A stretch of 64,000 bases of DNA, taken from assembly GCA_964652855.1 (NCBI GenBank), contig CAZZCJ010000001.1, positions 264,916 to 328,915 on the forward strand, written 5' to 3'. This document shows, one piece after another, positions 2,688 to 60,684 of the stretch. The stretch is from an uncultured Halomonas sp. Lineage in GTDB: Bacteria > Pseudomonadota > Gammaproteobacteria > Pseudomonadales > Halomonadaceae. The translations under genes were made by a program, and so were the position numbers. The number at the start of each line of letters is the position of its first letter. Positions within the stretch are counted from its first letter, which is position 1. The notes beneath the pieces were generated by a model. It was given only the letters and a program-made list of their open reading frames with translations, had not been told where the DNA came from and did no database searches.

Positions 2688-3416
2688 CTAGTCGCCCGAG
2701 GCGGGCGCTTCCAGTGAGCTGAGCAGCCCGCGCAGCAGCGACAGCTCCTTGCGGCTGGGCTGCGCCCGGGCGAACAGCGCCTGCAGCTGCGCCTCGGTGC
2801 GGGCGTGGGGCTGGGTCAGGAAGCCGCTGCCGTGCATCACCCGGCTCAGGTGCGCCTGGAAATGCGCCAGCTGTTCTCGGGTGGGCGGCTGTTCCGGCGC
2901 CGGACGTGCTGGCATGTGGCCGGAACGCAGGCGCCACGCCTTGAATACCTCGTAGGCGAGCACCTGGACGGCCTGGGAGAGGTTGAGGATGCCATAGTCG
3001 GGGTTGGCCGGAATGCTGGCCTGGTGGCTGCAGAGCCGAATCTCCTCATTGGTCAGCCCCGAGCGCTCACGTCCGAACACCAGCGCCACGGGTGCCTCGG
3101 CGGCGTGCGCGACCAGCGCGGTGGCCATCTGCTCGGGTTCGTCGTAGTGGGGCAGCGGCAGGCTGCGCAGGCGGGCGCTGGCGCCGACCACCTGGACGCA
3201 GTCGGCGACGGCCTGCTCCAGCGAGTCGACCACGCGGGCGGTGTCGACCACGTCTTCCGCGCCCGCCGCCAGGCGCGATGCCTCGTCGTCGGGGAAGCGG
3301 CGCGGGTTGACCAGCACCAGGTCGGTCAGGCCCATGGTCTTCATGGCTCGCGCCGAGGCGCCAATGTTGCCGGGGTGGTAGATCTGGACGAGTACGATGC
3401 GAATGTTGGCGAGCAT
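2688..3416 (-). CDS. trmJ: tRNA (cytidine/uridine-2'-O)-methyltransferase TrmJ
   Basis: The N-terminus MLANIRIVLVQIYHPGNIGASARAMKTMGL matches the SpoU/TrmJ N-terminus as I recall it from E. coli TrmJ. The ATG at 3416 is preferred over the TTG at 3431. Confidence 0.85.
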   Translation of the reverse strand: MLANIRIVLVQIYHPGNIGASARAMKTMGLTDLVLVNPRRFPDDEASRLAAGAEDVVDTARVVDSLEQAVADCVQVVGASARLRSLPLPHYDEPEQMATALVAHAAEAPVALVFGRERSGLTNEEIRLCSHQASIPANPDYGILNLSQAVQVLAYEVFKAWRLRSGHMPARPAPEQPPTREQLAHFQAHLSRVMHGSGFLTQPHARTEAQLQALFARAQPSRKELSLLRGLLSSLEAPASGD

Positions 3417-3455
3417 GGAAGCGGCTGGCAAGTTGGAAAGAGGCGATGTTAGCGC

Positions 3456-6517: not shown

Positions 6518-7279
6518 ATGAAAGTCGAAAAACGTGTAATCGCCATTACCGGTGGGGCCAGGGGCCTCGGCCTTGCCATGGCGCGCCGCCTCGGGCGCCA
6601 GGGCGCCGTCGTGGCCTTGCTGGATACCGATGCCGATGCAATGGACAAGGCGATAACTGCCCTACACAAGGAAAACGTTCGGGCCAGCGCCTTCCACGTC
6701 AACGTGGCGGACGAGGCCTCGGTGCAGCAGGCCTTCGGTGCGGTGGCGGCATCGCTGGGGCCGGTCAGCGGCCTCGTGAACAATGCCGGTATCCTGCGCG
6801 ATGCGCTGCTGGTGAAGGCGAAGGACGGCAAGGTCGAGAAGACCATGTCGCTGGCGCAGTGGCAGGCGGTCATCGACGTCAACCTCACCGGGGTATTCCT
6901 GTGCGGGCGTGAAGCCGCTGCCCAGATGATCGAGGCGGGGCACGACGGGGTGATCGTCAATATCTCCAGCATTTCCCGGGCCGGCAACATGGGGCAGAGC
7001 AACTATGCCGCGGCCAAGGCCGCCGTGGTCGCGCTGACCACCACCTGGGCCAAGGAGCTGGCACGCTACGGTATTCGCGTGGGGGCGGTGGCGCCAGGCT
7101 TCATCGAGACCGACATGACCGCCTCGATGCGCGACGACATGCTGGAGAAGCTGACCGCGGGTGTCCCGCTTCGGCGCCTTGGCGACCCGGACCACATCGC
7201 CCAGAGCGTGGCGTTCATCTTCGAGAACGATTACTACACCGGCCGCGTGATCGAGTGCGACGGCGGCCTGCGCCTGTAG
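6518..7279 (+). CDS. SDR family oxidoreductase (FabG-like)
   Basis: Carries TGGARGLG (TGxxxGxG), NNAG and YAAAKAA (YxxxK) motifs. 253 aa. Confidence 0.85.
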
Positions 7280-7376
7280 GTCGCTTCATGCCCCGGCGGA
7301 CCGAAGGCGTGGCAGGATCGGTTGTCACGGCCTTCTGTTCATGGCCCGTCGATAGGGGGCTGTTGAGACGACGCAT

Positions 7377-7404
7377 GGCGAGGCCGGCATATGCCGGCCT
7401 CGCC
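7377..7404. terminator. Perfect 14-bp palindrome between convergent SDR and comEA genes (bidirectional terminator-type hairpin)
   Basis: GGCGAGGCCGGCAT|ATGCCGGCCTCGCC. There is no clear T-tract on either side. Confidence 0.5.
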
Positions 7405-7422
7405 GTGTCGTAATTGCAGGCT

Positions 7423-7689
7423 TCAGAATGTGATCTGGTCCTTCAGCCGCTCGACGGTCGCCGGGCCTATTCCGCTGACTCGGGTCAGGTCGTCGGCGCT
7501 CTCGTAGTCACCGTTCGCTTCCCGGTCCTCGATGATCGCCTGGGCGCGGCTCGGGCCAATGCCCGGCAGCTCGGTCAGCAGCTCCGCATCGGCGGTATTC
7601 ACGTTGATCGGTGCTAACTCCTGCGCCATGGCCAGCGGTGCGACGCTCAGCATCAGGCCCAGCAAGGCGGCTCGCAAGAAACCCTTCAT
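7423..7689 (-). CDS. comEA: ComEA-family helix-hairpin-helix DNA-binding protein (secreted)
   Basis: Signal peptide MKGFLRAALLGLMLSVAPLAMA, then INVNTADAELLTELPGIGPSRAQAII and SGIGPATVERL HhH motifs. Confidence 0.85.
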   Translation of the reverse strand: MKGFLRAALLGLMLSVAPLAMAQELAPINVNTADAELLTELPGIGPSRAQAIIEDREANGDYESADDLTRVSGIGPATVERLKDQITF

Positions 7690-7880
7690 GGGTCTTCTCC
7701 TTTGTCGTTATCGATGCGGGACACCGGGCGGTGTCCCGATAAAACGCTAATGCAGAACACGCTGAACCAAGCAGAGTCCTGCGGCGACGGGAGACGTAAG
7801 CGTGGGCGCATTCCACGCGCTGAAGCGGTCCTGGCACGCTGTCAGCCAATCGAGCGCAAGCGAGTAAGCGCAGGCCGTGC

Positions 7881-8018
7881 AAGGGGAGGGCGAGCGACGG
7901 CGTGAAGCCAAGGAAAGGCAACACCAAGCTAAGGCAACGCCAAGCTGAGGCAACACCAAGAAACGCCAAGCAAGGGGATGCAAGGGCAAGGGCAAGGGCA
8001 GGAAAAGCACAGCAAGGG
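7881..8018. repeat. Degenerate purine-rich tandem repeat tract (AAGG/CAAGG motifs on + strand)
   Basis: Contains AAGGCAACACCAAGCT / AAGGCAACGCCAAGCT / GAGGCAACACCAAG, then CAAGGGGATG, CAAGGG x3, CAGGAAAAG and CAAGGG. It is intergenic between phhB and comEA. Confidence 0.7.
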
Positions 8019-8028
8019 CGGCGTCGGT

Positions 8029-8052
8029 GCCTGCCGGCGAGCGCCGGCAGGC
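8029..8052. other. 10-bp GC hairpin immediately after the phhB stop codon
   Basis: GCCTGCCGGC-GAGC-GCCGGCAGGC. There is no adjacent T-tract on either strand. Confidence 0.5.
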
Positions 8053-8060
8053 GTGGCCGG

Positions 8061-8402
8061 CTAGGTGTTCGCCACGGCGTCGGTGCGCGCCGCAAGGATG
8101 AAGTCGTTCTTGTGCAGCCCTTTCATCTCATGGGACCACCAGGTCACGGTGACCTTGCCCCACTCCGTCAGCAGGGCGGGATGGTGGCCCGCCTCCTCGG
8201 CAATTTCACCCACGCGGTTGGTGAAGGCCAGCGCCTGCTTGAAGTTGCGGAACGTGAACACGCGCTCGAGCTGCTTGATGCCGTCGCGCTCCTCTATGCT
8301 CCACTCTGGTAGGTCGCGCTTGAGGGTGTCGATCTCCTCCTCGCCGACATGGGGGGCGACCCAGCTGCACGCTTCGCACTGCTGTTCGGAAAGTTGGCTC
8401 AT
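8061..8402 (-). CDS. phhB: 4a-hydroxytetrahydrobiopterin (pterin-4a-carbinolamine) dehydratase
   Basis: 113 aa with the [19 protein letters not shown] motif, downstream of phhA. Confidence 0.9.
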
Positions 8403-8463
8403 GGTGTTTCCTCGTCAGGTTTTATGGGTGTTGGGCGGGGTCGTTCGATGTCGCTCGTTGTGT

Positions 8464-9294
8464 TCAAGCCTTGGCTGCCTTCGGCGCCGGTTCGAAGCGT
8501 GGCTCATGCAACCCCAGCTCCATGGCCCTGTGCACCATGGCCATGATGTCCTGCTGCGATAGGTCGTGCAGGGTCGAAAGATCGTCCAGCACGTAGTAGA
8601 GCGGCTGCAGGATGTCGATGCGATACGGGGTGCGCAGCGCCTCGATGGGGTCGAACGGCAGGTGCTCGGGCGTATCCGACAGCGAATGCAGGGTCTCCTT
8701 GGGCGAGGAGATGATGCCGCCACCATAGATGCGCCGACCGGCGGGGGTGTCCACCAGCCCGAACTCCACCGTCATCCAGTAGAGGCGTGCCAGGTAGACC
8801 CGCGCCTTGGGCTCCGCTTCGAGACCAAGGCGTCCATAGGTGGCGGTGAACTCGGCAAAGGAAGGATTGGTGAGCATGGGGCAGTGGCCGAAGATCTCGT
8901 GGAAGATGTCGGGTTCCTTGAGGTAATCCAGCTCCTCGGGGGTTCGGATGAAGGTGGCCACCGGAAAGCGCCGGTTGGCCAGCAGCTCGAAGAAGGTATT
9001 GAACGGAATGAGTGCGGGGACTTGCGCGGTCTGCCAGCCGGTACTGGCCTGGAGCACGCGGTCGATGTCGGCGAGCTGGGGAATTCTGTCTTCGGGCAGG
9101 GCGAGGCGCTTCAGGCCGTCGAGGTACTCCTGGCAAACGCGTCCCTCGAGCATGCCGAGCTGGCGCTGCATCAGGGTCTGCCAGGTGGCATTGTCCTGCT
9201 CCGGCCAGTCGATGAAGCCGTTGTCGTCGGGCAGGCGTGCACGGTAGCCGGTCTTGCTGGCGACATCGCTCAGATAGCGGTTGGATGACGTCAT
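8464..9294 (-). CDS. phhA: Phenylalanine 4-monooxygenase
   Basis: Carries PDIFHEIFGHCPMLTN (iron-binding His pair) and YWMTVEFGLV. The start is the ATG at 9294, preceded by GGAGA. The longer ORF to 9459 has an atypical N-terminus. Confidence 0.9.
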   Translation of the reverse strand: MTSSNRYLSDVASKTGYRARLPDDNGFIDWPEQDNATWQTLMQRQLGMLEGRVCQEYLDGLKRLALPEDRIPQLADIDRVLQASTGWQTAQVPALIPFNTFFELLANRRFPVATFIRTPEELDYLKEPDIFHEIFGHCPMLTNPSFAEFTATYGRLGLEAEPKARVYLARLYWMTVEFGLVDTPAGRRIYGGGIISSPKETLHSLSDTPEHLPFDPIEALRTPYRIDILQPLYYVLDDLSTLHDLSQQDIMAMVHRAMELGLHEPRFEPAPKAAKA

Positions 9295-9417
9295 GGAGTC
9301 TCCAGGTTGGCTGTCGTCGTTGTGATTGTGTTGGCGAGCCTTTGATCCGAGTGTAGAGGCGCTGGGGCGCGATATTTGGCCGGATCGAGGCGGGCGGAGG
9401 TGGCAGGACGCGTCGGG

Positions 9418-9435
9418 TGTAAAGAATTCGTGACG
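9418..9435. promoter_or_regulatory. Weak TyrR/PhhR-box-like site in the phhA-phhR intergenic region
   Basis: TGTAAAGAATTCGTGACG versus the consensus TGTAAA-N6-TTTACA (9 of 12). Confidence 0.4.
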
Positions 9436-9500
9436 ATTGATGGGGAAGGAGCGTCGCAAAGGGGGAACTCCCGGCTGGCTGCGGTTTGTCTCCCATGGGG

Positions 9501-9518
9501 TGTCACGTTACCTTTACA
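9501..9518. promoter_or_regulatory. TyrR/PhhR-box-like site in the phhA-phhR intergenic region
   Basis: TGTCACGTTACCTTTACA versus TGTAAA-N6-TTTACA (10 of 12), 48 nt upstream of the phhR ATG. Confidence 0.55.
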
Positions 9519-9565
9519 CCAGAGTCACGCCCACTTGACGACCTTTTCCCCCAGAGGCGCCCTCC

Positions 9566-11128
9566 ATGCGACTGAGGTTTCACTGCCAGAACCGTATCGG
9601 CATCCTGCGCGATATCGTCTCGCACTTCGTCGACTACGGCCTCAACGTGGCGCGCGGCGAGGTCGGGGGCGAGCACGGCAACGCCATCTATCTTCACATA
9701 CCCAACCTGCTCAATGCGCAGCTGGCCACGCTCAAGCCCGAGCTGGAGGCGGTGCCCGGCGTGTTCGGCGTGCGCCGCGTCAGCCTGATGCCCAGCGAGC
9801 GGCGCCACTTGGAGCTCGATGCGCTGCTGTCGTCGCTTTCGGACCCGGTCATGTCGATCGACATGGAAGGCCACATCGTGGCGGCCAACCGGGCCGCTGG
9901 CCAGTTGCTCGGGGTGCGTATCGACGAGGTGCCCGGGCTGTCGCTGAACCGGTACCTGCCCGACCTCGACCTGCCGGCGTTGATCCGGCGCAACAATGCG
10001 CGGGTCAACGGCCTGCGCATCAAGCTGCGCGACGCCACCTTCCTCGCCGATATCGCCCCGCTGCATCGCGAGCATCATGACGACGTGGGTTCCCTGGCCG
10101 GCGCCGTGGTGACCCTGCACAGTGCCGATCGCATCGGCGAACGCATCTACCAGGTACAGCGCCAGGAGCTGCGCGGCTTCGATGCGCTGTTCCAGGCCAG
10201 CCCCAGGCTTGCCGCGCTGATCCGCGAGGCGCGGCGAATGGCGCCCTTGGACGCACCGCTGCTGATCCATGGTGAAACCGGCACCGGCAAGGAGCTGCTG
10301 GCCCGGGCCTGTCACTTGGCCAGCGCTCGGGGCCAGGCGCCGTTCATGGCGCTGAACTGCGCAGGCCTGCCGGAATCGATGGCCGAGACGGAGCTGTTCG
10401 GCTACGCGCCGGGCGCCTTCGAAGGCGCCCGCCCGGAAGGCAAGCTGGGCCTGCTGGAGCTGACCGCAGGCGGCACCATCTTCCTCGACGAGGTGGGCGA
10501 GATGAGCCCGCGCCTGCAGGTCAAGCTGCTGCGCTTCCTGCAGGATGGCGGCTTTCGCCGGGTCGGTAGCGACGAGGAGACCTACCTCGACGTGCGCGTG
10601 ATCTGCGCCACCCAGCAGGACCTGCCCAGGCTTTGCGCCGAGGGACTTTTTCGCCACGATCTCTACCACCGGCTGAACGTGCTGTCGCTGACGGTGCCGC
10701 CGCTGCGCGACTGCCTCGACGGCATCGAGGCGATGGCGCTGCATTTCATCGACCGCGCCGCGCGCCAGATCGGCTGCCGCATGCCGTCGCTGTCGCCGGC
10801 GGCGCTGGCCAGGCTCTCCAGCTACCACTGGCCCGGTAACGTACGCCAGCTCGAGAACGTGCTGTTCCAGGCGGTGTCGCTGTGCGAAGGCGATGCCATC
10901 GAGCCGGGGCACCTGCGCCTGCCGGACGTGGGCGAGGCGCCGGGGCTTGCTGGCGTCGACCTGGACGGCTCGCTGGCCGACATCATGGGCGACGTGGAGC
11001 GGCGCATACTGGCCTCGCTCTACCCCAAGCACCCCTCCAGCCGCCAGCTGGCCAAGCGGCTCGGCGTATCGCACACCACCATTGCCAACAAGCTGCGCGG
11101 CTATGGTATAGGGCCCAGCGACGCCTAG
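9566..11128 (+). CDS. phhR: Sigma54-dependent transcriptional regulator PhhR/TyrR
   Basis: N-terminal ACT-like region (RLRFHCQNRIGILRDIV), a PAS-like segment, an AAA+ core (GETGTGKELLARACH, ETELFGY, GAFEGA) and a C-terminal HTH. It is divergent from phhAB. Confidence 0.9.
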   Translation: MRLRFHCQNRIGILRDIVSHFVDYGLNVARGEVGGEHGNAIYLHIPNLLNAQLATLKPELEAVPGVFGVRRVSLMPSERRHLELDALLSSLSDPVMSIDMEGHIVAANRAAGQLLGVRIDEVPGLSLNRYLPDLDLPALIRRNNARVNGLRIKLRDATFLADIAPLHREHHDDVGSLAGAVVTLHSADRIGERIYQVQRQELRGFDALFQASPRLAALIREARRMAPLDAPLLIHGETGTGKELLARACHLASARGQAPFMALNCAGLPESMAETELFGYAPGAFEGARPEGKLGLLELTAGGTIFLDEVGEMSPRLQVKLLRFLQDGGFRRVGSDEETYLDVRVICATQQDLPRLCAEGLFRHDLYHRLNVLSLTVPPLRDCLDGIEAMALHFIDRAARQIGCRMPSLSPAALARLSSYHWPGNVRQLENVLFQAVSLCEGDAIEPGHLRLPDVGEAPGLAGVDLDGSLADIMGDVERRILASLYPKHPSSRQLAKRLGVSHTTIANKLRGYGIGPSDA

Positions 11129-13104
11129 CCGACAGGCGCCAGCGAGCACCGGGCGGCGAGGTCGCGTACCTCGGCGTAGCGATAGGCTTCCAGCGCCCCG
11201 AAGCCCGCCAGGCGGCGTGCCTTGAGGCGGGTGAGCAGGGGGCCGGTCAGGCCGCACAGGAATCGTGCCAGCAGGTCGGGTGTGAGGGGAGTGGTCTGGC
11301 CTTCGGCATGCAGCTGCTGGACCAGTTCGCCCGCGAGCCGTTCGAGGGTCTCGCTCGCAAGGGGGTCGAGCGGTGCGGGGGCGGGTAGCCGCGCGACGTG
11401 ACCTAGGCAGGCCGAGCAGTGGCCGCAGTGCTCCGGCGCCCGGGTATCGCCGAACCATTCGGCCAGCCGACGGCTCAGGCAGACTGCGCTCTCGAACAGC
11501 GCCAGCATGGCATGCAGTCGCTCGATCTCGGCCCGTTCCTTGTCGCCGAAGTAGGCGTGGAGCTCGTTGGTCAGCGCAACGGGATCGAGGTCGGCGCGCA
11601 GCACGTCGTACACCTCGGTCATCTGCTTGCTCTCCAGCACCATCCAGCCCTGGGCGACGAAATAGTCCAGCGCGGTGATGACGCGTGCTCGCTCGACGTT
11701 GAGGCCGCGTTCGTCGCCCAGCCGCTCGAGCGCCGCGAAGTCGAGCGTGAACCAGGTGCGGGCGCGCGGCGAGGCGTCGAGGATCGCCTGGACGAAGGCG
11801 CCGCGTTCGCCTTCGAAGCGCGATGCCAAGACCTCGGGCGCGTCGTGCAGGCGGAAGCGGTACTCGGCGAAGTAGCTGTAGCGCGGCGCGATGATGCCGC
11901 GCAGCTCGAGCTGCACCAGCAGTGTCTTGAGCGGCAGCGGGCGGATGTCGCTGCGCTGCGAGAGCGAGTTGAGCACCAGCTCCCACTGTCGCCCGGTGCC
12001 GGCCGCCTCGATCAGCTCGTCGATCACCAGGCGAATGCCGTGGGGTTCCGGCGTGTCGCCGTAGACGAAGTTCTCCAGCACGTTGACGTGATCGCGACCG
12101 GCCAGCATCAGGCAGTCGGAGGGCTGGCCGTCGCGCCCGGCACGGCCGATCTCCTGGCTGTAGTTCTCCACCGACTTGGGCAGGTCGTAGTGCACCACGT
12201 TGCGGATGTCGGCCTTGTCGATGCCCATGCCGAAGGCAATGGTGGCGACGATGCAGGGCGTATGGCCGGCCATGAAGTCGCGCTGGATGCGCTCGCGAGT
12301 CTCGCCGTCGAGGCCGGCGTGGTAGGCGGTGGCGGCCAGGCCCGCCTTGCTCAGGTAGGCGGCCAGGCGCTCGGCGGTCTGCTGCAGGGTGACGTAGACG
12401 ATGGTGGGCTGGGGCGGCTCTACGCCGAGCCTGGGGCGCAGCCACTCCACCAGCCGGCGCGCACGCGCCGCGGCCGGCACCGGCGCCACGTCCAGGTTGA
12501 GGTTGGGGCGGTAGAAGCCGGTGGCGGTGACGTCGTCCTCGGCGATGTCGAAGCGCTCGCGCATGTCGGCGATCACGCGCGGCGTGGCCGTGGCGGTCAG
12601 CAGCAGCACCTGGGGGATGCCGAATTCATGGCGGTAGTGCGGCAGCTTGAGGTAGTCGGGGCGGAAGTTGTGGCCCCACTCCGAGATACAGTGGGCTTCG
12701 TCGACGACCAGTAGCGAGATCGGCACGCGCCTGATGAAGGCGCGAAAGCGCTCGTTCTTGAGCCGCTCCACCGAGATCATCAGGATGCGGATCTCGCCGC
12801 GCTTGACGCCCTCCATCACCGCGGCCGCTTCCTCACGGCTCTGGCCCGAGTCGATGCTGGCGGCGGCGATGCCGTGGCGGGCCAGGAAGGCGAGCTGATC
12901 CTGCATCAGCGCCAGCAGCGGCGAGATCACCAGGGTCAACTGGGGCAGGTGCAGCGCGGGCAGCTGGTAGCACAGCGACTTGCCCGAGCCGGTGGGGAAG
13001 ATCGCCGCCGCCGAACGCCCGGCGGTGATCGCCTCGATGACCGGGCGCTGGCCGGGGCGGAAGTCGTCATAGCCGAAGACCTGCTTCAACGTCTGCTCGA
13101 TCAT
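11125..13104 (-). CDS. RecQ-family ATP-dependent DNA helicase (non-canonical, about 660 aa)
   Basis: Motifs: FGYDDFRPGQ, FPTGSGKSLCYQLPA (motif I), VVDEAHCISEWGHNFRPDY (DEAH), GRAGRDG, and a late Cys cluster C..RRLAEWFGD...HCGHCSAC. The start is the ATG at 13104 (MIEQTLKQVFGYDDF). Confidence 0.85.
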   Translation of the reverse strand: MIEQTLKQVFGYDDFRPGQRPVIEAITAGRSAAAIFPTGSGKSLCYQLPALHLPQLTLVISPLLALMQDQLAFLARHGIAAASIDSGQSREEAAAVMEGVKRGEIRILMISVERLKNERFRAFIRRVPISLLVVDEAHCISEWGHNFRPDYLKLPHYRHEFGIPQVLLLTATATPRVIADMRERFDIAEDDVTATGFYRPNLNLDVAPVPAAARARRLVEWLRPRLGVEPPQPTIVYVTLQQTAERLAAYLSKAGLAATAYHAGLDGETRERIQRDFMAGHTPCIVATIAFGMGIDKADIRNVVHYDLPKSVENYSQEIGRAGRDGQPSDCLMLAGRDHVNVLENFVYGDTPEPHGIRLVIDELIEAAGTGRQWELVLNSLSQRSDIRPLPLKTLLVQLELRGIIAPRYSYFAEYRFRLHDAPEVLASRFEGERGAFVQAILDASPRARTWFTLDFAALERLGDERGLNVERARVITALDYFVAQGWMVLESKQMTEVYDVLRADLDPVALTNELHAYFGDKERAEIERLHAMLALFESAVCLSRRLAEWFGDTRAPEHCGHCSACLGHVARLPAPAPLDPLASETLERLAGELVQQLHAEGQTTPLTPDLLARFLCGLTGPLLTRLKARRLAGFGALEAYRYAEVRDLAARCSLAPVG

Positions 13105-13229
13105 AGGGGCACTCCCTGCTCGGTGGTTGGCGAAGCGTTGGGCGGAGGCCGTGGCCACCACCGGGCGAACAGTCTCGCACATCGACGTGGCGACGGCTGT
13201 CCGCTCCCGCCTGCAGCGGTCGTAGGCGA

Positions 13230-13258
13230 TTGGTGCCCCTGGCCCGGGTGGGTAGAAT
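13230..13258 (+). promoter_or_regulatory. Candidate sigma70 promoter of the SMC/Toprim operon
   Basis: TTGGTG-N17-TAGAAT, with the -10 hexamer 41 nt upstream of the ATG at 13299. The -35 element is weak. Confidence 0.35.
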
Positions 13259-13298
13259 GGCCGCCTGCGATCAAGCGCTAACCGACCAAGGACGCGGC

Positions 13299-16200
13299 AT
13301 GGCTCACCTGCTACGCATCGTGATGATTCACGGCCATCTGGAAGGGGTGGTCGAACTCAGTGTGGACGGGCACACCAACATCTGCGGCACCAACGCCTCG
13401 GGCAAGACGACCCTGCAGCGGCTGGTGCCGGTGTTCTACGGCGAACTGCCCAACCGGGTGGTGCCCAGGACCCGGCTCAAGTTCGACGCCTTCTACCTGC
13501 CGCACCGCAACAGCTACCTGGTCTACGAGTACCGCCGCGAAGAGGGCGACACCTGCCAGGTGGTGCTGACCCGCAAGAGCGAAGGCGGCGTGGAGTACCG
13601 CTTCGTCGCCGCGCCCTATCGCCCGGAAGACTACCTGGTGCAGAGCGAAGCCGGCGTCACCGCCCTGGACTACGCCCAGTGGTTCAGCGGGCTGCGCCGC
13701 GAGGGGATCGCCACCTCGCCCAAGCTGGGCGCCACCTCCGAATACCGGGCGGTGATCCAGAACGACTTCACCCAGCACGGCCCCCAGGGGCCCAGTGGCC
13801 GCAGCGAGCTTATGCGCCTGCGCCAGATCGCCGCCCGCTTCAGCCTGGTGCGCGGCGGGCAGCGGATTCGCCACATGGAGAAGCTAGTCTCGGCGGTGCA
13901 CGCCAAGGAGGGCAAGATGGACACCCTCAAGACCATGCTGGCGGCGATCTTCGAGGAGGACGGCGTCGAGCTGCCGGTGACCCGCATTCGCAACACCAAG
14001 GCCCGCGAGTGGATCGCCCGCATGCGCCAGTCGATGCGCCTGGAGCCGCTGCAGCGCGCCCTGGAGGGCCTCGAGCGCCTCGACCGGGAGACCGCCGATC
14101 TCGAGGCGGCGCTGTGGCAGCTGCGGCCCCAGCTCGAGGCCGACCGCCATCGCGCCGAGCGCGCCGGCGCCGATCTCGAGGCGCAGCTGAACGCGCGCCA
14201 GCGCGACTTCCAGGCCCGCGAGCAGGCCCACGAGGAAGCCCGCGGCAACCTCAATGCGCGCCTCAGCGAACTCGACAGCGTGCTGGACCAGACCCGCCGC
14301 GACCTCGACGACCTGCAGCGCCGCTTCGAAGCCTTCGAGGAGGCCGACATGCCGGGGCTGGAGCGCGACCTCGCCGCCTTGCCCCAGTGGCGTGAACAGC
14401 AGCAGCAGATGCGCGAGCATCTCGAGCAGCTGCAGCAGGCGGCCCAGGAGAGCAAGGCGCGGCTCGATGCGCGGCTGGTGGAGCTCGGCGACCTGCAGGC
14501 GCGCCACGGCGAAGAGATCCAGGCCTTGATCGATGCGCTGGGCGAGGAGAAGGAGCGCAGCCGCGAAGCCCAGGGCGAAGAGGAGCGGCGCCTGGATGCC
14601 GACTACCAGGCCCGCCGCGATGCCCTGGCCGAGGACTACCGGGGGCGCCTGGAGCAGGGAACCGCCGCCCTGTTGGAGCTCAAGGCCCGGCTCGCCCACG
14701 GCGCCCCCACGGCGGAGGAGGTTCGCGAAGCCGAGCAGGCCCAGGCCCGGGTGGACCAGGCGCAGAACGAGCAGCGCGCCGCGGCCGCCGCGGTGGAGAG
14801 CGTGCGCAGCGAGCACGACGCCTGCCGGCAGGCCCGCGAGCTCGCCGAGCGCGAACTCGAACGGGGGCGAGCGCAGCGCTCCCGGGCCCAGGCACGGCTC
14901 GATGGCCTGCTGGCCCAGCGCGACCCCGCCCAGGGCAGCCTGCGCCACTTCCTGCGCCACCACCGCCCGGGCTGGGAGCAGCGCCTGGGCAAGGTGATCG
15001 ACCCCGCGCTGCTCGAGCGCCGCGACCTCGCCCCGCAGCTCGACCCGCAGGGCAGCGACGACCTGTTCGGGCTGATGCTGGACCTGGCCGCCATCGCGCT
15101 GCCCGACCACGCCCGGGACGAGGCCACCCTGCTGGCCGAGATCGACGCCGCCGAGCAGGCCCTGGCCCAGGCCCAGGAGGCCGAAAAGTGTGCCGAGAAG
15201 GCGCTCAAGGCTTCTCATGCCAAGGTGCAGGAAGCCACCACCCGCCTCGAGCATGCCCGCAGCAGCGGACGTCGCGCCGCCGAGGAGGTGGACTATGCGC
15301 TGCAGGCCCGCAGCCAGTGCCAGCAGCGCCATGCCGCCGCCCTCAAGGCGCGCGAGGCCGCCTGCCGCCAGGCGCTGGTGGAGCGCGAGGCCCTGCAGCA
15401 GGCGCTGCGGGACGAACGGCGCCAGGCCCTGGAGGCGCTGGCCGCTACCCACCGCGCCCAGCGCCTGGAGCTCACCGCCGACTTCCAGGGGCGGCTGGCC
15501 GGTTTCGATGGGCAGATCGCCCAGCACCGCCGCCAGCTGGTTGAATACAAGGAGGAGACCCGCCGCCAGCGCGAGGAGCTGCAGGCCGCCTATGACCGCG
15601 AGCTGGCCGAGCAGGGGGTGGATACCGTCAGCCTCAACCAGACCCGCACGCGGCTCAAGGCGCTGGATGCGCGCATCCGCCAGACCGAGGCGCGCCGCGA
15701 GGAGCTAGACGAGTACGCCCGTTTCATGCGGGTGGCCTGGGGCGAGCGCAAGCCGAGCCTGGTGGCGCAGGAGGCGGAGCTTGCCCGCGACCACCAGGCC
15801 GCCGAGCGCGAACGCCAGGCGCTCGACCAGCAGTTCCAGGCCGCCCGGCGCGAGCACCAGTCGGCGGTCGCCGAGCTCAAGGCGCGGCGCGGCGTGGAGC
15901 AGCAGCGGCTCGAGGCCCTGGCGCCGCTGCTGGCCAAGCTCGAGGCACTGGCCTTGTCGCCGGACCCGACGCCCCGCGGCGAGGCGCCCGGGGATGGCGA
16001 GGAGCGTATCGAGCGGGCGCGCCAGGCGCTGGCCGACCACGCCCGCACCCTCGAGGCGCTGCGCCGCGGCTGCGAGAAGGTCGAAGCCGACCTGGTCAAG
16101 GGCGCCAGCGCCGACTTCCAGGAGACCCTGGACGCCGAACGCGCCCGGCTCGACGACCCGAGCCCGCGTCGCCTGCTGGCCGTGCTGGCCGGCATGCTGA

Positions 16201-16976
16201 CGCTGCTGGAAGGCCAGCAGCAGCAGCTGCTGCAGGAGGGGCGCAACCTTTCCGACGACCTCGACAAGTTCTTCACGGTGTTCCGCGACCTCAACCGGCG
16301 CATCAACGCCCAGAGCCGGCGCCTCTCCGATGAGGTGGCCGACGACCTCACGCTGGAGGGGATCGGTCGCGCCGAGGTGAAGATCCAGTCGACCATCGAC
16401 GAGCTGGGCTTCTGGGAGCCGCTCAAGCGTTTCGCCCAGCGCTACCGCGAGTGGCGCGACTCCGGCCAGCCGCTGCCCGGCGACGACTACCTCGACGCCA
16501 TGGCCGACGTGGTGGAGCTGTTGCGCAGCGACCAGCAGTACAGCTTCGAGAGCCTGCTGCGCCTGGAGCTGCACCTCAACGAGGGCGGCACCGACCTGGT
16601 GATCAGGAACGACCGCCAGCTCCTGGAGTCCTCCAGCCACGGCATGGCCTACCTGATCCTGTGCAAGTTCCTGCTCGCCTTCACCCGGCTGCTGCGCGGC
16701 GAGGCCCAGGTGGACATCCACTGGCCCATCGACGAGATAGGCACCCTGGCCTACCACAACGTGGAGAAGCTGTTCGACGCCTGCGACAACAACCGTATCC
16801 ATATCGTCGGCGCCTTCCCCAACCCCGAGTCGGACGTGCTGCTGCTGTTCCGCAATCGCTACCTGATCGATCGCGACGAGGCCGACCCCACCAAGCGGCG
16901 GCTCAAGCGGATCGAGCCGCGCCTGAGCCGCCTGGCCCAGCGGCTGCAGGCCCGCGCAGAGGAGACAGTCGCATGA
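13299..16976 (+). CDS. SMC/MukB-like ABC ATPase, 1225 aa (DUF3584-like; JetC/MksB analogue)
   Basis: Walker A is GTNASGKTT (nt 13386-13412). Two very long A/E/R/Q/L-rich predicted coiled-coil arms flank a non-coil segment at the gene midpoint (about nt 14930-15120). The C-terminal head has SSSHG followed about 30 aa later by IHWPIDEIGTL (Walker B-like). An AAGGA RBS lies 6 nt upstream of the ATG at 13299. Confidence 0.8.
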   Translation: MAHLLRIVMIHGHLEGVVELSVDGHTNICGTNASGKTTLQRLVPVFYGELPNRVVPRTRLKFDAFYLPHRNSYLVYEYRREEGDTCQVVLTRKSEGGVEYRFVAAPYRPEDYLVQSEAGVTALDYAQWFSGLRREGIATSPKLGATSEYRAVIQNDFTQHGPQGPSGRSELMRLRQIAARFSLVRGGQRIRHMEKLVSAVHAKEGKMDTLKTMLAAIFEEDGVELPVTRIRNTKAREWIARMRQSMRLEPLQRALEGLERLDRETADLEAALWQLRPQLEADRHRAERAGADLEAQLNARQRDFQAREQAHEEARGNLNARLSELDSVLDQTRRDLDDLQRRFEAFEEADMPGLERDLAALPQWREQQQQMREHLEQLQQAAQESKARLDARLVELGDLQARHGEEIQALIDALGEEKERSREAQGEEERRLDADYQARRDALAEDYRGRLEQGTAALLELKARLAHGAPTAEEVREAEQAQARVDQAQNEQRAAAAAVESVRSEHDACRQARELAERELERGRAQRSRAQARLDGLLAQRDPAQGSLRHFLRHHRPGWEQRLGKVIDPALLERRDLAPQLDPQGSDDLFGLMLDLAAIALPDHARDEATLLAEIDAAEQALAQAQEAEKCAEKALKASHAKVQEATTRLEHARSSGRRAAEEVDYALQARSQCQQRHAAALKAREAACRQALVEREALQQALRDERRQALEALAATHRAQRLELTADFQGRLAGFDGQIAQHRRQLVEYKEETRRQREELQAAYDRELAEQGVDTVSLNQTRTRLKALDARIRQTEARREELDEYARFMRVAWGERKPSLVAQEAELARDHQAAERERQALDQQFQAARREHQSAVAELKARRGVEQQRLEALAPLLAKLEALALSPDPTPRGEAPGDGEERIERARQALADHARTLEALRRGCEKVEADLVKGASADFQETLDAERARLDDPSPRRLLAVLAGMLTLLEGQQQQLLQEGRNLSDDLDKFFTVFRDLNRRINAQSRRLSDEVADDLTLEGIGRAEVKIQSTIDELGFWEPLKRFAQRYREWRDSGQPLPGDDYLDAMADVVELLRSDQQYSFESLLRLELHLNEGGTDLVIRNDRQLLESSSHGMAYLILCKFLLAFTRLLRGEAQVDIHWPIDEIGTLAYHNVEKLFDACDNNRIHIVGAFPNPESDVLLLFRNRYLIDRDEADPTKRRLKRIEPRLSRLAQRLQARAEETVA

Positions 16977-17659
16977 GGAACGACCCGATGACCGAGTCCG
17001 CGCTGGACGAACAGCCCTTGCAGGGCCGCGCCATGGACGCCATGGGGCCTCTGCTCGAACGCCTGCTGGCCGGCGAGTTCATCTGTGCGGTAAGCGACGA
17101 GAATGCCTTTCGTCGCCTGCAGGACGAGGCCGTTCGCGAGCAGATCGACGGCTACCTGCGTCCGCTCAACCGCCGCCTCGCCGCCAATGACGAAGGTAGC
17201 GTCTACTTCCTGGCCTGGCGGCGGCTCGACGACGCCGCCCGCGAGCAGCTCTCGCGCCAGCTCGGCGACACCGTGGCCAGCCTGATGCCGCTGCTGGAGT
17301 GGCTGCAGCTGGTGCAGGAGGCGCTGGGCCGCGACGGCCTCGCCGCCCCCGGCGACGTGCTCAAGCCCGCCGACTTCAGCTCGCGCTGCGAGGATCACCA
17401 GGGCCTGCGCGAGCGCCTGGAGCGGCTGGCCACCGCCCCCTTCTTCGGCTCCCAGAGCGACCAGCTCGACGCCCAGCTCAAGCAGGTGTTCAAGCGCCTG
17501 AAGGAGCACGGCTACCTGCAGCAGCCCCACGCCGACCGCCAGTACTACGTGGTCACCGGCAAGATCGACTACCTGATCGACCTGGTGCGCTTCATCCGCG
17601 ACGAGGAGAACCTGCCCGTGGACGACCAGGCGCCGGCGGAGCAGGAGCGCCTGCTGTGA
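16973..17659 (+). CDS. Small acidic subunit, 228 aa (MksE/JetB/MukE-like, assignment tentative)
   Basis: The ATG overlaps the upstream stop (ATGA), with a GAGGAGA RBS. The segment LLERLLAGEFICAVSDENAFRRLQDE...IDGYLRPLNRRLAANDEGSVYFLAWRR resembles the DUF4194/MksE pattern as I remember it. Confidence 0.55.
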   Translation: MRNDPMTESALDEQPLQGRAMDAMGPLLERLLAGEFICAVSDENAFRRLQDEAVREQIDGYLRPLNRRLAANDEGSVYFLAWRRLDDAAREQLSRQLGDTVASLMPLLEWLQLVQEALGRDGLAAPGDVLKPADFSSRCEDHQGLRERLERLATAPFFGSQSDQLDAQLKQVFKRLKEHGYLQQPHADRQYYVVTGKIDYLIDLVRFIRDEENLPVDDQAPAEQERLL

Positions 17660-18894
17660 GCGGCACCGATCCCCGCGCCCTGGAGAGCCGCCTGGTCACG
17701 ACCGGCGTGGAGCGCCTGGCGCTGCTGGGCAAGCACGCCGAGGCGTTGATGGCCGGCTACGCCCGCGACGAGGTGCCGCTGGAAGGGTTGAGTACCACCG
17801 CGCTGAATAGGCTGTTGGCCGCACGCATCCTGTGGCGTCCCGACGAGCAGAGCGGGGTGAAGCTCGCGCCCAAGGTGCGCGAGCTGATCGCCGAGATGCT
17901 GGCCGACGAGACCCGCCGCCACGTCAACGCCGACGTGGCAGAGACCCTGGAGCGGGTGCGCAGCCTGGTGCAGAGCTACCGCGAGGCGCGGGACGCCGGC
18001 GACTACTGGCGCCAGGAGCAGCAGCTGCTGCGCCTGCGCCAGGAAGTGGACGACCTCAACGGTCGCTTCGCCGATGCCATCGACAGCCTGTGGCGGCGTC
18101 TCAACGGCGACTTCGGCTTCGTCAGCCGGCTCAGCGACAAGATCCGCGAGAACGAGCGCGCGCAGAAGCAGATCGTGCGCCTGCTCGACGGCCTGGCGCT
18201 GATCGACTTCGATGAGTTCATCGCGCTGGTGGGCGGCGACGGCGCCCTGCGCAAGCTGCTGGTCAGCCAGCTCCAGCACCAGCTGACCCACCACTTCACC
18301 AGCCTGCGCGAAGTGCAGCGGCGCATGATCGAGCTGATGGCACGCTTTCGCCAGCAGCAGTCCCGCAGCCGCCTGGTGGCCGGCATGGTGGGCTTCCTGC
18401 GCGAGCACCCGGGCTTCGTGCCGGGCAACTATGCGCTGCGCAGCGAAGTGCCGGCGCTGGTCAACCGCGCCGCGCCGCGGGTCGCCGCCGGGTCGGCGGC
18501 GCTGGACCGCGACGCCGACGCCCGCACGCTGGCCGAGCTGCTGCACCGCCTGCCCAGGCCCACCCAGCGGCCCGCGCCGGTCGCGGCCGCCGCGGCCGCC
18601 GAGCGCTACGAAGAGAGCCGGGTGGCAGCCCGGCAGCAGGCGCTCAAGGAGGATGTCGAGCGCTTCTACCTGGCGGTGGTGGACCGCGGCGGCGAGCCCG
18701 TCAGCGCGCTTGACTACCTGCAGCAGGCCGAGCGCGAATGGGGCGCTGAGATCTGGCTGTTCGAGGTCATCGCCGAGTACCAGGGCCTGCCACGCAGCGA
18801 GCAGAGCGCCTTTCGCCTGCGCCAGGAAGAGACCCAGGCCAGTCCCTTCAACCAGCTGCGGCTGATCCACGACGTGGTGCTGCAGCTCGCCTGA
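17656..18894 (+). CDS. 412-aa subunit (possible kleisin-like MksF/JetA analogue, assignment tentative)
   Basis: The GTG start overlaps the upstream stop (GTGA), preceded by GGAGCAGGAG. It looks helical and Arg/Leu-rich. I recognise no enzymatic motif. The role is inferred from position and size only. Confidence 0.45.
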   Translation: MSGTDPRALESRLVTTGVERLALLGKHAEALMAGYARDEVPLEGLSTTALNRLLAARILWRPDEQSGVKLAPKVRELIAEMLADETRRHVNADVAETLERVRSLVQSYREARDAGDYWRQEQQLLRLRQEVDDLNGRFADAIDSLWRRLNGDFGFVSRLSDKIRENERAQKQIVRLLDGLALIDFDEFIALVGGDGALRKLLVSQLQHQLTHHFTSLREVQRRMIELMARFRQQQSRSRLVAGMVGFLREHPGFVPGNYALRSEVPALVNRAAPRVAAGSAALDRDADARTLAELLHRLPRPTQRPAPVAAAAAAERYEESRVAARQQALKEDVERFYLAVVDRGGEPVSALDYLQQAEREWGAEIWLFEVIAEYQGLPRSEQSAFRLRQEETQASPFNQLRLIHDVVLQLA

Positions 18895-18903
18895 GGAGGT
18901 CCC

Positions 18904-19788
18904 ATGCATCTCGCCTCGAGTGCCCGCCGGCTGCTGCGCGACGTCGCCCAGCGGCTGCGTAGCGAACCTGTGGTGCAGAAGTCGCGGGGGAAGGCCCTCG
19001 ACGAGCTGCTGGCCTGGCTCGACGAGTGGCATATCGAGCCGGGGGCGCGCCTCAGCCACGGCGGGCTGCACATCGACCGCGCCCTGCTGGCGCAGATCGA
19101 GGATGCCCTGGCGCTCTCCGGCGACGCCCCGCTGGCCGTCGACCTGGCCGGCCTGAGCAGCGCCGAGCAGGCTCGCCACGGAAACCGCGAGGACAAGGGC
19201 AAGCGGGAGAAGCCGCGCAGGCACCGAGTGCTGGTCAACTTGCCCGACGCGGCGCCGCGGCCAGGCGTTTCCCCAGCGGCGCGGGACGTGCTCGACCTGG
19301 ACCGGCGCCGGCTCGATCTCGCTGCCTTCGATGTGCTCGTGCAGGTCGAGAACCTCGATAGTTTCTATGCGCTGCCTGCCGTGGTGCCGGCGCTGGCCGG
19401 CTGGGCGCGGCCGCTGTGCATCTACCGTGGCGACAAGCACTACGGGGGCGGCTTTGCCGAGCTGGCCAGAGACTGGAACGCCACCGGCAGGGTGCACCTC
19501 TACCTGGGCGACTTCGATGCCAAGGGGGTGGGCATCGCCATCTCGTCGGGCGCGACCCACCTGCTGCTGCCGCCGCTGGCGTGGCTGGCCCAGCGCGCCA
19601 ACGCCGAGCACCTGCCGCCGAAGCAGCAGGAGTACCAGCAGGCCCTGGCCCGGCACCTCGCTGAATTGCCGGCAGGGCACCCGCTGGCCGGCTACCTTGA
19701 AATCCTGCTCCTCGATCAGCGCGGCCTGCGCCAGCAGTGGTTCGGCAGCGAGCTGGCCGGGGTGCCGCTCGGCCAGGGGCCGGGCTGA
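18904..19788 (+). CDS. Toprim-domain protein, 294 aa (JetD/MksG-like nuclease subunit, short form)
   Basis: A GAGGAGG RBS precedes it. The C-terminal half has VLVQVENLDSF (conserved Glu, codon 19348-19350), ...IYRGD..., and LYLGDFDAKGVGIA (DxD, nt 19510-19518), the Toprim E...DxD arrangement seen in JetD/DUF2220 proteins. Confidence 0.65.
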   Translation: MHLASSARRLLRDVAQRLRSEPVVQKSRGKALDELLAWLDEWHIEPGARLSHGGLHIDRALLAQIEDALALSGDAPLAVDLAGLSSAEQARHGNREDKGKREKPRRHRVLVNLPDAAPRPGVSPAARDVLDLDRRRLDLAAFDVLVQVENLDSFYALPAVVPALAGWARPLCIYRGDKHYGGGFAELARDWNATGRVHLYLGDFDAKGVGIAISSGATHLLLPPLAWLAQRANAEHLPPKQQEYQQALARHLAELPAGHPLAGYLEILLLDQRGLRQQWFGSELAGVPLGQGPG

Positions 19789-19837: not shown

Positions 19838-20143
19838 ATGCATGTGATCATCGACCTTTGCGTGATTCCCCTCGGCGTCGGCGTGTCGGTCTCGCCGCAG
19901 GTCGCGGCCTGCCAGCGGGTGATCGAGGCGTCGGGCCTCACCCACCAGATGCACGCCTACGGAACCAACATCGAGGGGCCATGGGACGAAGTGATGGCGG
20001 TGGTCAAGCGCTGCCACGAGGAGGTGCACGCCATGGGTGCACCGCGCATCACCACCACCATCAAGCTGGGCACGCGCACCGACCGCGAGCAGTCCATGGC
20101 CGACAAGGTGGAGAGCGTCGAAACCAAGCTGCACAAGGCTTGA
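19838..20143 (+). CDS. MTH1187/YkoF-like (UPF0045) thiamine-binding family protein
   Basis: 101 aa: MHVIIDLCVIPLGVGVSVSPQVAACQRVIE...HAYGTNIEGPWDEVM...APRITTTIKLGTRTD. Confidence 0.8.
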   Translation: MHVIIDLCVIPLGVGVSVSPQVAACQRVIEASGLTHQMHAYGTNIEGPWDEVMAVVKRCHEEVHAMGAPRITTTIKLGTRTDREQSMADKVESVETKLHKA

Positions 20144-43417: not shown

Positions 43418-44020
43418 ATGACTACGCTTCGTTCCGCTTCTTTGCGCCAGGCCCTGCTGATAATGCCGGCGCTGCTGCTCACTGCCGGGCTGGCCGCAGC
43501 CCATCCGGGCCACGACCATGCCCACGGCGCTGGCTTCGCCGCCGGCCTGGCGCACCCGCTGCTGGGGTTCGACCACCTGCTGGCGATGCTGGCCGTGGGG
43601 CTCTGGAGCCTGCGCCAGAGCCGCGCTTTCAGTATCAGTGCACCCTTGCTCGCCGCCGTCGGCATGCTGCTGGGGGCAGGGCTAGCCTGGGGCGGCTTCG
43701 CGCTGCCAGGCGTGGAATTCGGCATCGCCATGTCGGTGCTGCTGGCGGGGGTGCTGGTCGCTGCGCTGGTCAAAGTGCCAGCGGGAATCGGCGCCGGCGT
43801 GGTGGTGCTGTTCATGCTCTTCCACGGCCATGCCCACGGCAGCGAGATGCCCCATGGCGCCTCGACGCTGGCCTACCTGGCCGGCTTCACCCTGGCGACC
43901 CTGGTCATCACCTACATGGGCCGCACGGCGGGTGCCTTCTTGATGGCGCGCGAGCATCGCCTCCTGCGGGCGCTGGGCCTGCTGATTGCCGCGGCCGGCG
44001 CGCTGTTCGCGTTGGGCTGA
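43418..44020 (+). CDS. ureJ: HupE/UreJ family nickel/cobalt transporter
   Basis: Signal peptide, then HPGHDHAHG, GFDHLLAML and HGHAHG. An AAGGAG RBS precedes it. Confidence 0.85.
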   Translation: MTTLRSASLRQALLIMPALLLTAGLAAAHPGHDHAHGAGFAAGLAHPLLGFDHLLAMLAVGLWSLRQSRAFSISAPLLAAVGMLLGAGLAWGGFALPGVEFGIAMSVLLAGVLVAALVKVPAGIGAGVVVLFMLFHGHAHGSEMPHGASTLAYLAGFTLATLVITYMGRTAGAFLMAREHRLLRALGLLIAAAGALFALG

Positions 44021-44132
44021 TACTCGGTCGTCAGCGCCGCCTTGGGCTCATGCCGGGGGCGGCGCTATATCGAAAAGTTGACATGGAAGGCCCAGACGCG
44101 CAGTTTGAAAAGAAAATAGCTAGGAGAGGCGT

Positions 44133-44357
44133 ATGGATACGCTTTGGTTGGCGATCAAGATCGTCATCACGCTGCTGGTTGTGATTCTTTTCGTGCAGAA
44201 CATCGTGCTGGTCGAAGTGCGTTTTTTGACATGGAGTGCCCGCGTTCCGCTGGCGCTTCTGCTGCTGGGTATCTACCTGTTCGGCATGCTGAGCGGCAAG
44301 TCGCTGTTCCACCTGCTGGGCCGCCTGCGCAAGGATTGCCAGCGTTCTACGAGGTGA
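44133..44357 (+). CDS. LapA-domain (DUF1049) small membrane protein
   Basis: 74 aa, with LFVQNIVLVEVRFLTWSARVPLALLLLGIYLFGMLSG matching the LapA_dom pattern. An AGGAGAGG RBS precedes it. Confidence 0.7.
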   Translation: MDTLWLAIKIVITLLVVILFVQNIVLVEVRFLTWSARVPLALLLLGIYLFGMLSGKSLFHLLGRLRKDCQRSTR

Positions 44358-60019: not shown

Positions 60020-60096
60020 GTCTTGCGTCCTTATGGCTTTGCCCGTGCCGCTACGAGAATAAACGATGAACGCGTCACGGCGACACCCCGGGGCCT

Positions 60097-60138
60097 GAAA
60101 AGCGCAGCCCCCGGCGAGCAGGGCTCGCCGGGGGCTGC
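60097..60138 (-). terminator. Phasin gene rho-independent terminator
   Basis: A 16-bp stem GCAGCCCCCGGCGAGC / GCTCGCCGGGGGCTGC, followed by TTTT on the minus strand. Confidence 0.8.
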
Positions 60139-60169
60139 TGTGTGAAGCGGAGGCCGTAAGGCCATCGGC

Positions 60170-60544: not shown

Positions 60545-60684
60545 GGCGGAAATCTCCGTGGTCTCTAGCGTGCTGAGCGGTGATTCCGCTCCCTTGTTGG
60601 CAACCTATCAAAGCCATTGCTGCGCTGCAACAATTTTTTCGTGTCGATCTGTGGCACGGATTTCTTGCGGCCATGAGCCTGCCT

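Follow-up and report, generated by a model that had tools for sequence, protein, structure and literature searches.

Background

Wadjet types are told apart by how their operons are organised and which domains they encode, and in types I–III the genes run jetA-jetB-jetC-jetD, encoding a kleisin, a KITE subunit, a structural maintenance of chromosomes (SMC) ATPase and a nuclease (PMC10586767; bioRxiv 2025.03.10.642339); as of 2025, these three are the only types to have been named (bioRxiv 2025.03.10.642339). A 64,000-nucleotide stretch from an uncultured Halomonas sp. (GCA_964652855.1, contig CAZZCJ010000001.1, positions 264,916–328,915; hereafter the window) carries a four-gene operon at 13299–19788 in which the same four roles appear in the order SMC ATPase, KITE, kleisin-like protein and nuclease. 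This operon is a new, divergent member of the ‘BEFG’ clade of the Wadjet/Mks group, a clade that is catalogued, unnamed and not biochemically studied.

The catalogue of Bürmann et al. (2025, Cell; PMC7617805), assembled with an iterative profile search and an operon-context filter, recognizes Wadjet/Mks operons by co-directional and consecutive genes for MksB (>890 aa, with Walker motifs), MksE (150–800 aa) and MksF (400–1200 aa), with an optional flanking MksG. Its Data S1 (clusters 1–12) includes 11 ‘BEFG’ operons and one ‘BEF’ operon with gene sizes matching those of the window, and in the published MksB tree these 12 operons form one clade with 100% support, while MukB groups with FEBG systems and not with the BEFG clade (PMC7617805). 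Related nuclease-less complexes, MukBEF of Escherichia coli and MksBEF of Pseudomonas aeruginosa, are chromosome organisers, and reviews have proposed that both are domesticated Wadjet systems for which the loss of the nuclease was the locking step. In three Shewanella species, a DUF3584 protein was specifically important for cisplatin resistance and motility, and was co-fit with its two neighbours (Sama_0592–0594; Price et al., bioRxiv 10.1101/072470).

Operon organisation and subunit identity

All four genes are encoded on the forward strand: an mksB/jetC-like SMC ATPase (gene 1, 13299–16976, 1225 aa), an mksE/jetB-like KITE subunit (gene 2, 16973–17659, 228 aa), a kleisin-like subunit in the mksF/jetA position (gene 3, 17656–18894, 412 aa, GTG start), and an mksG/jetD-like Toprim nuclease (gene 4, 18904–19788, 294 aa). 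A first-pass annotation of the window, based on its letters, had described an ATPase-first set of genes packed almost without spacers, and both the order and the packing were confirmed. Genes 1 and 2 share an ATG/TGA overlap (gcATGAgg) and genes 2 and 3 a GTG/TGA overlap (ctGTGAgc), while genes 3 and 4 are separated by a 9-nt gap (TGAGGAGGTCCCATG) in which GAGGAGG, the ribosome-binding site of gene 4, spans the gene 3 stop codon (stop codon and spacer read from the sequence at 18892–18903, forward strand).

The 116-bp intergenic region upstream of gene 1 (13183–13298), common to the operon and a divergent RecQ-like gene, likely holds the promoter: TTGGTG-17 nt-TAGAAT is present there, an AAGGA ribosome-binding site precedes the ATG by 8 nt, and a consensus promoter scan at a stricter threshold returned no site upstream of gene 1. 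Since the Shewanella orthologue aligns residue 1 to residue 1, the start of gene 1 was placed at the ATG at 13299 and not at the in-frame TTG at 13230. No LexA box (CTGT-N8-ACAG) was seen by eye in the region upstream of gene 1, and control of the operon by the SOS response was rejected on this basis. Third-codon-position G+C (GC3) of the four genes (0.90–0.93) falls within that of the flanking genes (0.84–0.94), overall G+C is likewise host-like, and the flanks contain no mobile-element or defence genes, all as expected from the earlier description of a host-like locus without flanking mobile elements.

Gene 1 matches Pfam DUF3584 across its full length (E = 2.7e-229), a model matched by neither canonical type II JetC nor E. 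coli MukB in the Pfam scan, and unlike those proteins it has no match to PF13558 or PF13555, nor to MukB or MukB_hinge. It possesses a Walker A (G30-x4-G-K36-T-T), a signature-like motif (S1112-S-x-G1115), a Walker B (D1145-E1146) and, where an H-loop would be expected in the C-terminal head, a MukB-like ‘A-x-P’ (‘GAFP’). All four motifs are kept in an alignment with three distant relatives, and the Walker B and ‘A-x-P’ align with the ‘LDEA...IIAAP’ segment of E. coli MukB. The composition is rich in E/K/R/Q/A/L at ~250–550 and ~600–950, predicted to form two coiled-coil arms, with a Pro/Gly-rich dip at ~551–600 that is putatively hinge-like. Both the MukB/SMC architecture and the DUF3584-type head assigned to this protein at first pass are consistent with these results.

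The acidic gene 2 product (pI 4.74) matches Pfam MksE (PF21980; E = 1.9e-8, 35.3 bits against a cutoff of 27, profile positions 6–160 of 163), a model also matched by E. coli MukE (6.8e-51), and is the predicted KITE subunit, of the MukE/MksE/JetB family. The first reading of this protein as acidic and MksE-like was upheld; its score for DUF4194 (24.4 bits) fell under the cutoff of 32.7.

Gene 4 matches Pfam DUF7281 (E = 2e-12, 47.5 bits against a cutoff of 27) and has weaker signals to JetD_C (E = 0.033, 14 bits, under the cutoff of 22) and the PADLOC JetD1 model (6.7e-4); among 28 homologues, the only other Pfam signals were JetD_C and DUF2399, both sub-threshold. The E149-N-L-D and G-D203-F-D205 motifs are invariant in the same 28 homologues, whereas no tyrosine within the N-terminal 120 residues is. 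In the AlphaFold2 model (predicted local distance difference test [pLDDT] score, 85), a small N-terminal alpha/beta domain (residues 1–95) is joined by a linker to a Toprim domain with E149 and D203-x-D205. The best Foldseek match in the PDB was topoisomerase VI-A (1d3y_A; E = 8e-4, probability 1.0) over ~310 alignment columns with a global TM-score of just 0.36, and this is the structure on which MksG has been superposed (Weiss et al. 2023). Gene 4 is therefore read, from its motifs and predicted fold, as the putative nuclease subunit (MksG/JetD), a Toprim protein of topoisomerase VI-A-like fold that has the E...DxD metal site, in line with the Toprim core first recognized in the letters, and Pfam DUF7281 becomes readable as an MksG/JetD-type Toprim domain. 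Gene 4 differs from the topoisomerase VI-A/Spo11 proteins in having no invariant tyrosine in this N-terminal stretch and no B-subunit partner.

Gene 3 has no sequence match in Pfam, NCBIfam, the PADLOC Wadjet models or the PDB, and Pfam scans of 24 and then 57 of its relatives returned no DUF3375, DUF2397 or MukF match. Its AlphaFold2 model (pLDDT, 77) runs from an N-terminal winged helix through a helical bundle (72–250) and a low-confidence linker (~255–316) to a C-terminal winged helix (317–411), a predicted layout that fits the N-terminal winged-helix domain, bundle, linker and C-terminal winged-helix domain of the MukF kleisin. MukF chains took all of the top four Foldseek places (9gm7_C, 1t98_A, 9gm9_D and 3rpu_A) and six of the top twelve, at non-significant E values (0.04–0.1); the kleisin-like character originally proposed for gene 3 from its size and helical nature is compatible with the model layout and these weak fold matches. 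An exhaustive profile search of 1.84 billion representatives recovered 318 clusters only, a compact family of proteins all ~400–420 aa in length, and no bridge to canonical kleisins.

Alignment with hhalign of the gene 3 family to single MukF and type II JetA sequences, and of the gene 4 family to a single type II JetD sequence, gave probabilities <1%; one-sequence templates are uninformative, and so these values are not evidence against homology. A search for PDB relatives by phmmer (all four proteins) and hmmsearch (gene 3 and gene 4 families) yielded no credible candidate, with a match to PA28 (E = 0.005) dismissed as a helical-bundle coincidence. Among the families that the first-pass annotation had named for profile searches, DUF3584 was matched, DUF4194 and DUF2399 stayed sub-threshold, and DUF3375 was not matched by gene 3.

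Members of the gene 3 family carry the name ‘phosphoenolpyruvate carboxylase’ in NCBI/UniProt in several species of Shewanella and one of Halomonas, including S. amazonensis ABL98802.1 and an H. aquatica protein, which looks like a propagated mis-annotation. Other entries of the family (some in UniRef) are labelled DUF3375, yet have no match to the DUF3375 Pfam model.

Relationship to the BEFG clade and to named systems

With co-directional genes of 1225, 228, 412 and 294 aa, a Walker A K36 and a Walker B D1145-E1146, the window operon falls within the bounds used by Bürmann et al. A tblastn search of gene 1 against plasmids recovered the catalogued locus of Acinetobacter indicus pB18-1 (CP044456.1, 100873–107379), and the same four genes occur in the same order on this plasmid, Aromatoleum EbN1 plasmid 1 and Marinobacter VT8 pMAQU02. 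The BEFG operons of A. indicus pB18-1 and Psychrobacter arcticus 273-4 encode proteins of ~1240/210/415/287 aa in B-E-F-G order, and they share the Pfam pattern of the window, in which B matches DUF3584, G matches DUF7281 and F belongs to no family. The E proteins of the similar EbN1 and VT8 plasmid operons match MksE, as does gene 2. Gene 1 is 23–27% identical to the plasmid MksB proteins (196–279 bits; A. indicus, 196) and gene 2 scores 53–103 bits against the E proteins (A. indicus, 53). A gene 3 family profile built without plasmid sequences matches the catalogued A. indicus ‘MksF’ (1.2e-48). For G, homology is established through the shared DUF7281 model (A. indicus MksG, 7.8e-31, also above the DUF2399 cutoff); a profile of the Halomonas-type gene 4 barely detects the plasmid proteins. 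The window operon is assigned to the BEFG clade, or possibly to a sister lineage of it, by homology of the four proteins and by their order. Unlike the plasmid operons, it is chromosomal and fixed across a family.

Homology to the listed A. indicus locus means that the ATPase-first architecture had already been catalogued, and the earlier suggestion of an undescribed system does not stand, with ‘BEFG’ present in Data S1 and Shewanella DUF3584 phenotypes reported by Price et al. Whether the architecture is an already named subtype, the outcome that would have overturned that suggestion, has a split answer: it is catalogued as the BEFG clade, yet lies outside the named types I–III. Data S1 contains no Halomonas BEFG operon, and Shewanella is represented there by a single row, for an FEBG operon of a different strain, with the DUF3584 operon of S. 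amazonensis also absent; this implies that the catalogue search missed this sub-lineage.

The named Wadjet types I–III (JetABCD of E. coli GF4-3 and P. aeruginosa PA14, MksBEFG of Corynebacterium glutamicum, and EptABCD of Mycobacterium smegmatis) have the same four roles, and their nuclease, like gene 4, is a topoisomerase VI-A-related Toprim protein with an E/DxD site and no CAP-domain tyrosine. The window differs in its permuted order, with the ATPase first and not third; in a kleisin-like protein that matches none of DUF3375, DUF2397 and MukF; and in a nuclease of 294 aa compared to ~400–444 aa (~100–150 aa less than C. glutamicum MksG or type II JetD), which agrees with the first-pass estimate of a shorter subunit. 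Type II JetD consists of DUF3323 and DUF2399 and MksG of DUF3322 and DUF2220, and neither N-terminal domain was detected in gene 4. Gene order, nuclease N-terminal domain and PADLOC detection consequently all place the operon outside types I–III.

Several features are shared with MukBEF, including the Pfam MksE match common to MukE and gene 2, the MukF chains at the top of the (non-significant) gene 3 fold matches, and the alignment of the gene 1 C-terminal head with the MukB Walker B and ‘AAP’. In contrast to MukBEF, the window has a nuclease gene, a B-E-F and not F-E-B order, and no match to Pfam MukB, MukB_hinge or MukF, all three of which were matched by an E. coli MukFEB control. A sister relationship to MukBEF was rejected on the grounds that MukB groups with FEBG systems in the published tree.

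Matches on IncHI2 plasmids of Enterobacteriaceae were rejected as operons. These are 229-aa N-terminal fragments of an ATPase of the DUF3584 type that share 35% identity with gene 1 and are present on an Enterobacter cloacae IncHI2A plasmid and ~13 similar plasmids; on these clinical plasmids the fragment lies between IS630 insertion sequence (IS) elements, among methionine-sulfoxide-reductase genes.

A nuclease-less relative in Shewanella

The cluster of one representative from the gene 3 search includes a protein of S. amazonensis SB2B (ABL98802.1), the locus of which encodes DUF3581, DUF3584 (1226 aa), a 221-aa protein and a 406-aa protein, followed by an unrelated symporter, a layout that matches Sama_0592–0594. 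No DUF7281 gene occurs within 8 kb of this DUF3584 locus. Sama_0592 is 34% identical to gene 1 (576 bits), Sama_0593 is 44% identical to gene 2, and identity for F is 35%, such that the three are nearer to the window proteins than are those of the plasmid BEFG operons. The B-E-F order and overlapping junctions are the same as in the window, while the nuclease gene is missing, and what has been reported is sensitivity to cisplatin and impaired motility rather than restriction of plasmids. Sama_0592–0594 is the closest relative with any phenotype. The DUF3581 gene (2722–3423 of the S. amazonensis locus) lies 236 bp upstream of the DUF3584 gene; DUF3581 was rejected as a fifth component, as it is absent from the window and from the 80 Halomonadaceae-type loci described below.

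Distribution and inheritance

A gene 4 alignment was scanned against one genome per species in GTDB, from which 115 relatives were identified and 80 loci kept. All 80 belong to the Halomonadaceae or Ectothiorhodospira, plus two short contigs of metagenome-assembled genomes (MAGs) with other labels. The B-E-F-G order occurs in 78 of the 80 loci, with the two exceptions on contigs too short to tell; this recurrence indicates that the four-gene arrangement is not due to chance, and it answers the proposal, made at first pass, that co-occurrence of the four families in this order be surveyed. Halomonas elongata and H. campaniensis are among the carriers. Marinospirillum and Rheinheimera also possess B-E-F-G operons with DUF7281.

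Median identity to the window is 66% for B, 77.5% for E, 75% for F and 50% for G. The nuclease diverges faster than B, E and F, as would be expected for an effector under conflict. Flanking genes vary by genus, and 31 Vreelandella-type loci have the same upstream genes, suggesting stable vertical inheritance within lineages. The ATPase of the Ectothiorhodospira copies is more similar to that of the window (76–78% identity) than are the Vreelandella copies (~66%), although Vreelandella belongs to the Halomonadaceae, which points to a single transfer of the whole operon between orders of haloalkaliphiles.

In one Halomonas MAG (Kmv22), a 3.2-kb segment with 58% G+C (~6800–10000 of locus L020) is located between the kleisin-like and nuclease genes. 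This segment contains a lipoprotein-like open reading frame (ORF) and a cation-antiporter-like ORF. It may be a genuine insertion that interrupts the operon, or else an artefact of MAG assembly.

Proposed function and alternatives

The operon is probably, if by no means certainly, a Wadjet/Mks-group SMC-nuclease system for which plasmid DNA is the favoured target, a reading supported by the identity of the parts, their co-inheritance in B-E-F-G order and the intact catalytic motifs. By homology with MukBEF and JetABC, two gene 1 ATPases would dimerise at the hinge, with the gene 3 kleisin bridging their heads and carrying a gene 2 KITE dimer. The resulting BEF ring would load on DNA and move by ATP-driven loop extrusion, as in Wadjet type I and MukBEF. 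The gene 4 product, a small relative of topoisomerase VI-A/Spo11 whose N-terminal domain offers no candidate for a catalytic tyrosine, would be an endonuclease dependent on metal. It would most likely dock on the BEF core and cut only in response to a particular state signalled by the core. In Wadjet type I that state appears to be the complete extrusion of a small circular DNA.

For the nuclease, the favoured job is to restrict extrachromosomal circular DNA or to control its copy number; a role in conflict is suggested by its fast divergence and by the plasmid sister operons, which adjoin a DNA methyltransferase gene or a RES-domain (toxin) gene. The BEF core probably also acts on the host chromosome, as the nuclease-less Shewanella orthologue evidently does, and such a role is suggested by the family-wide fixation, the housekeeping contexts and the Shewanella phenotype.

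Several observations weigh against a Wadjet-type system directed at plasmids. Patchiness is typical of defence systems, whereas this operon has family-wide retention, housekeeping contexts and genus-level synteny, and its nearest characterised orthologue, in Shewanella, comes without the nuclease and shows a phenotype linked to the chromosome and DNA damage. For nuclease-bearing members of the BEFG clade, no experiment has been reported. A PADLOC-DB v2 run, a check put forward at first pass, gave only marginal matches, to JetC1 (6.5e-5 over 42 residues), JetB1 (2.6e-3) and JetD1 (6.7e-4) and none to JetA; current defence-system hidden Markov models miss the BEFG clade. At the sequence level, nothing connects gene 3 to DUF3375, DUF2397 or MukF, and its fold matches are non-significant. 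JetD and MksG chains are absent from the top 50 fold matches of gene 4, and the Pfam scan found no DUF3322/DUF3323-type N-terminal domain in this protein, and so its docking may differ. Lastly, a complete B-E-F-G operon is carried by a 40,249-bp circular plasmid, pACI-b25a of Acinetobacter sp. ACNIH1, raising the question of how this plasmid would escape its own system if the system were Wadjet-type-I-like, and cautioning against the assumption of Wadjet-I-like cutting of all small circles. IS elements and a recombinase gene flank the pACI-b25a operon.

Possible, though on present evidence rather unlikely, is that the operon provides no plasmid immunity and is instead a domesticated condensin for chromosome maintenance or DNA-damage tolerance, like MukBEF or P. 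aeruginosa MksBEF, with gene 4 processing stalled, cross-linked or entangled DNA. Such a role would accord with the requirement for Sama_0592–0594 (34/44/35% identity, no nuclease within 8 kb) in cisplatin resistance and motility, although the Shewanella phenotype needs no nuclease and is uninformative about gene 4. The presence of the operon in at least 78 species-level Halomonadaceae/Ectothiorhodospira genomes, the housekeeping genes in the examined flanks, the vertical inheritance of the 31 loci with common upstream genes and the strong conservation of B, E and F would also be accounted for, but the much faster divergence of gene 4 and the position of sister operons on plasmids beside methyltransferase and toxin genes would not. 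Furthermore, the RecQ-like neighbour in the window is kept in only 4 of the 80 loci and no LexA box was seen upstream.

Only tentatively, and with a low expectation that it is correct, the operon could be a Wadjet-derived system part-way through domestication, fixed in the family, with its core acting on the chromosome in support of DNA-damage tolerance, like the nuclease-less Shewanella orthologue, and an active nuclease that acts on damaged, cross-linked or entangled chromosomal DNA and not on plasmids. If true, the operon would give SMC-nuclease pairs a new role in the cell and represent a living intermediate of the proposed transition from Wadjet to MukBEF/MksBEF. Closely related BEF cores with a nuclease (Halomonadaceae, Marinospirillum and Rheinheimera) and without one (S. 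amazonensis) offer a natural comparison, and a pair of nuclease-bearing and nuclease-less orthologues, with a chromosomal phenotype on record for the nuclease-less form, could test the proposed domestication of Wadjet into chromosome organisers.

It is very improbable that the four proteins form no SMC-kleisin ring and are instead an unrelated pair of ABC-ATPase and Toprim defence proteins (PARIS, Gabija/OLD or Lamassu-like) with two accessory proteins. An ATPase and a Toprim protein encoded together, the lack of a sequence family for gene 3 and a faint match to PADLOC LmuB (E = 0.16) would be compatible with such a pair, but gene 2 scores above the MksE threshold; the 1225-aa ATPase has two long predicted coiled-coil arms, a hinge-like centre and MukB-like C-terminal motifs; the gene 3 model places two winged helices around a helical bundle as in MukF; and all four proteins are homologous to those of an operon that the MksB phylogeny puts within the Wadjet group. 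That the operon is a decaying, Wadjet-like remnant without current function is scarcely credible, for although canonical Wadjet models barely detect it and truncated, IS-flanked 229-aa ATPase fragments exist on IncHI2 plasmids, it consists of four intact, translationally coupled ORFs with host-like codon usage and is retained across 78 loci with its catalytic residues invariant.

Halomonas species are used as an industrial chassis. If the Wadjet-type reading is correct and the operon limits plasmids, its deletion could improve plasmid maintenance in Halomonas chassis strains.

Genomic setting

The neighbours of the operon are genes for a sigma-54 activator, the divergent RecQ-family helicase, a small thiamine-binding-family protein, LysR, LysE and HPPD. 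The helicase (11125–13182, reverse strand, 685 aa; DEAD, Helicase_C and RecQ_Zn_bind domains) is divergent from gene 1, and the sigma-54 activator (9566–11128) is convergent with it, their stops overlapping by 4 bp. A functional link between the operon and the helicase was rejected because of how rarely the two are adjacent (4/80 related loci).

Downstream, a 101-aa Thiamine_BP (PF01910) ORF (19838–20143, forward strand) begins 50 bp past gene 4 and has a GC3 of 0.65, compared to ~0.9 in every neighbouring gene, making its composition odd for the genome. Elsewhere in the window, G+C is low at 60000–62000 (0.609) and 44000–46000 (0.575), the latter region encoding a CHASE3 histidine kinase, a response regulator and a YaiO-type barrel protein.

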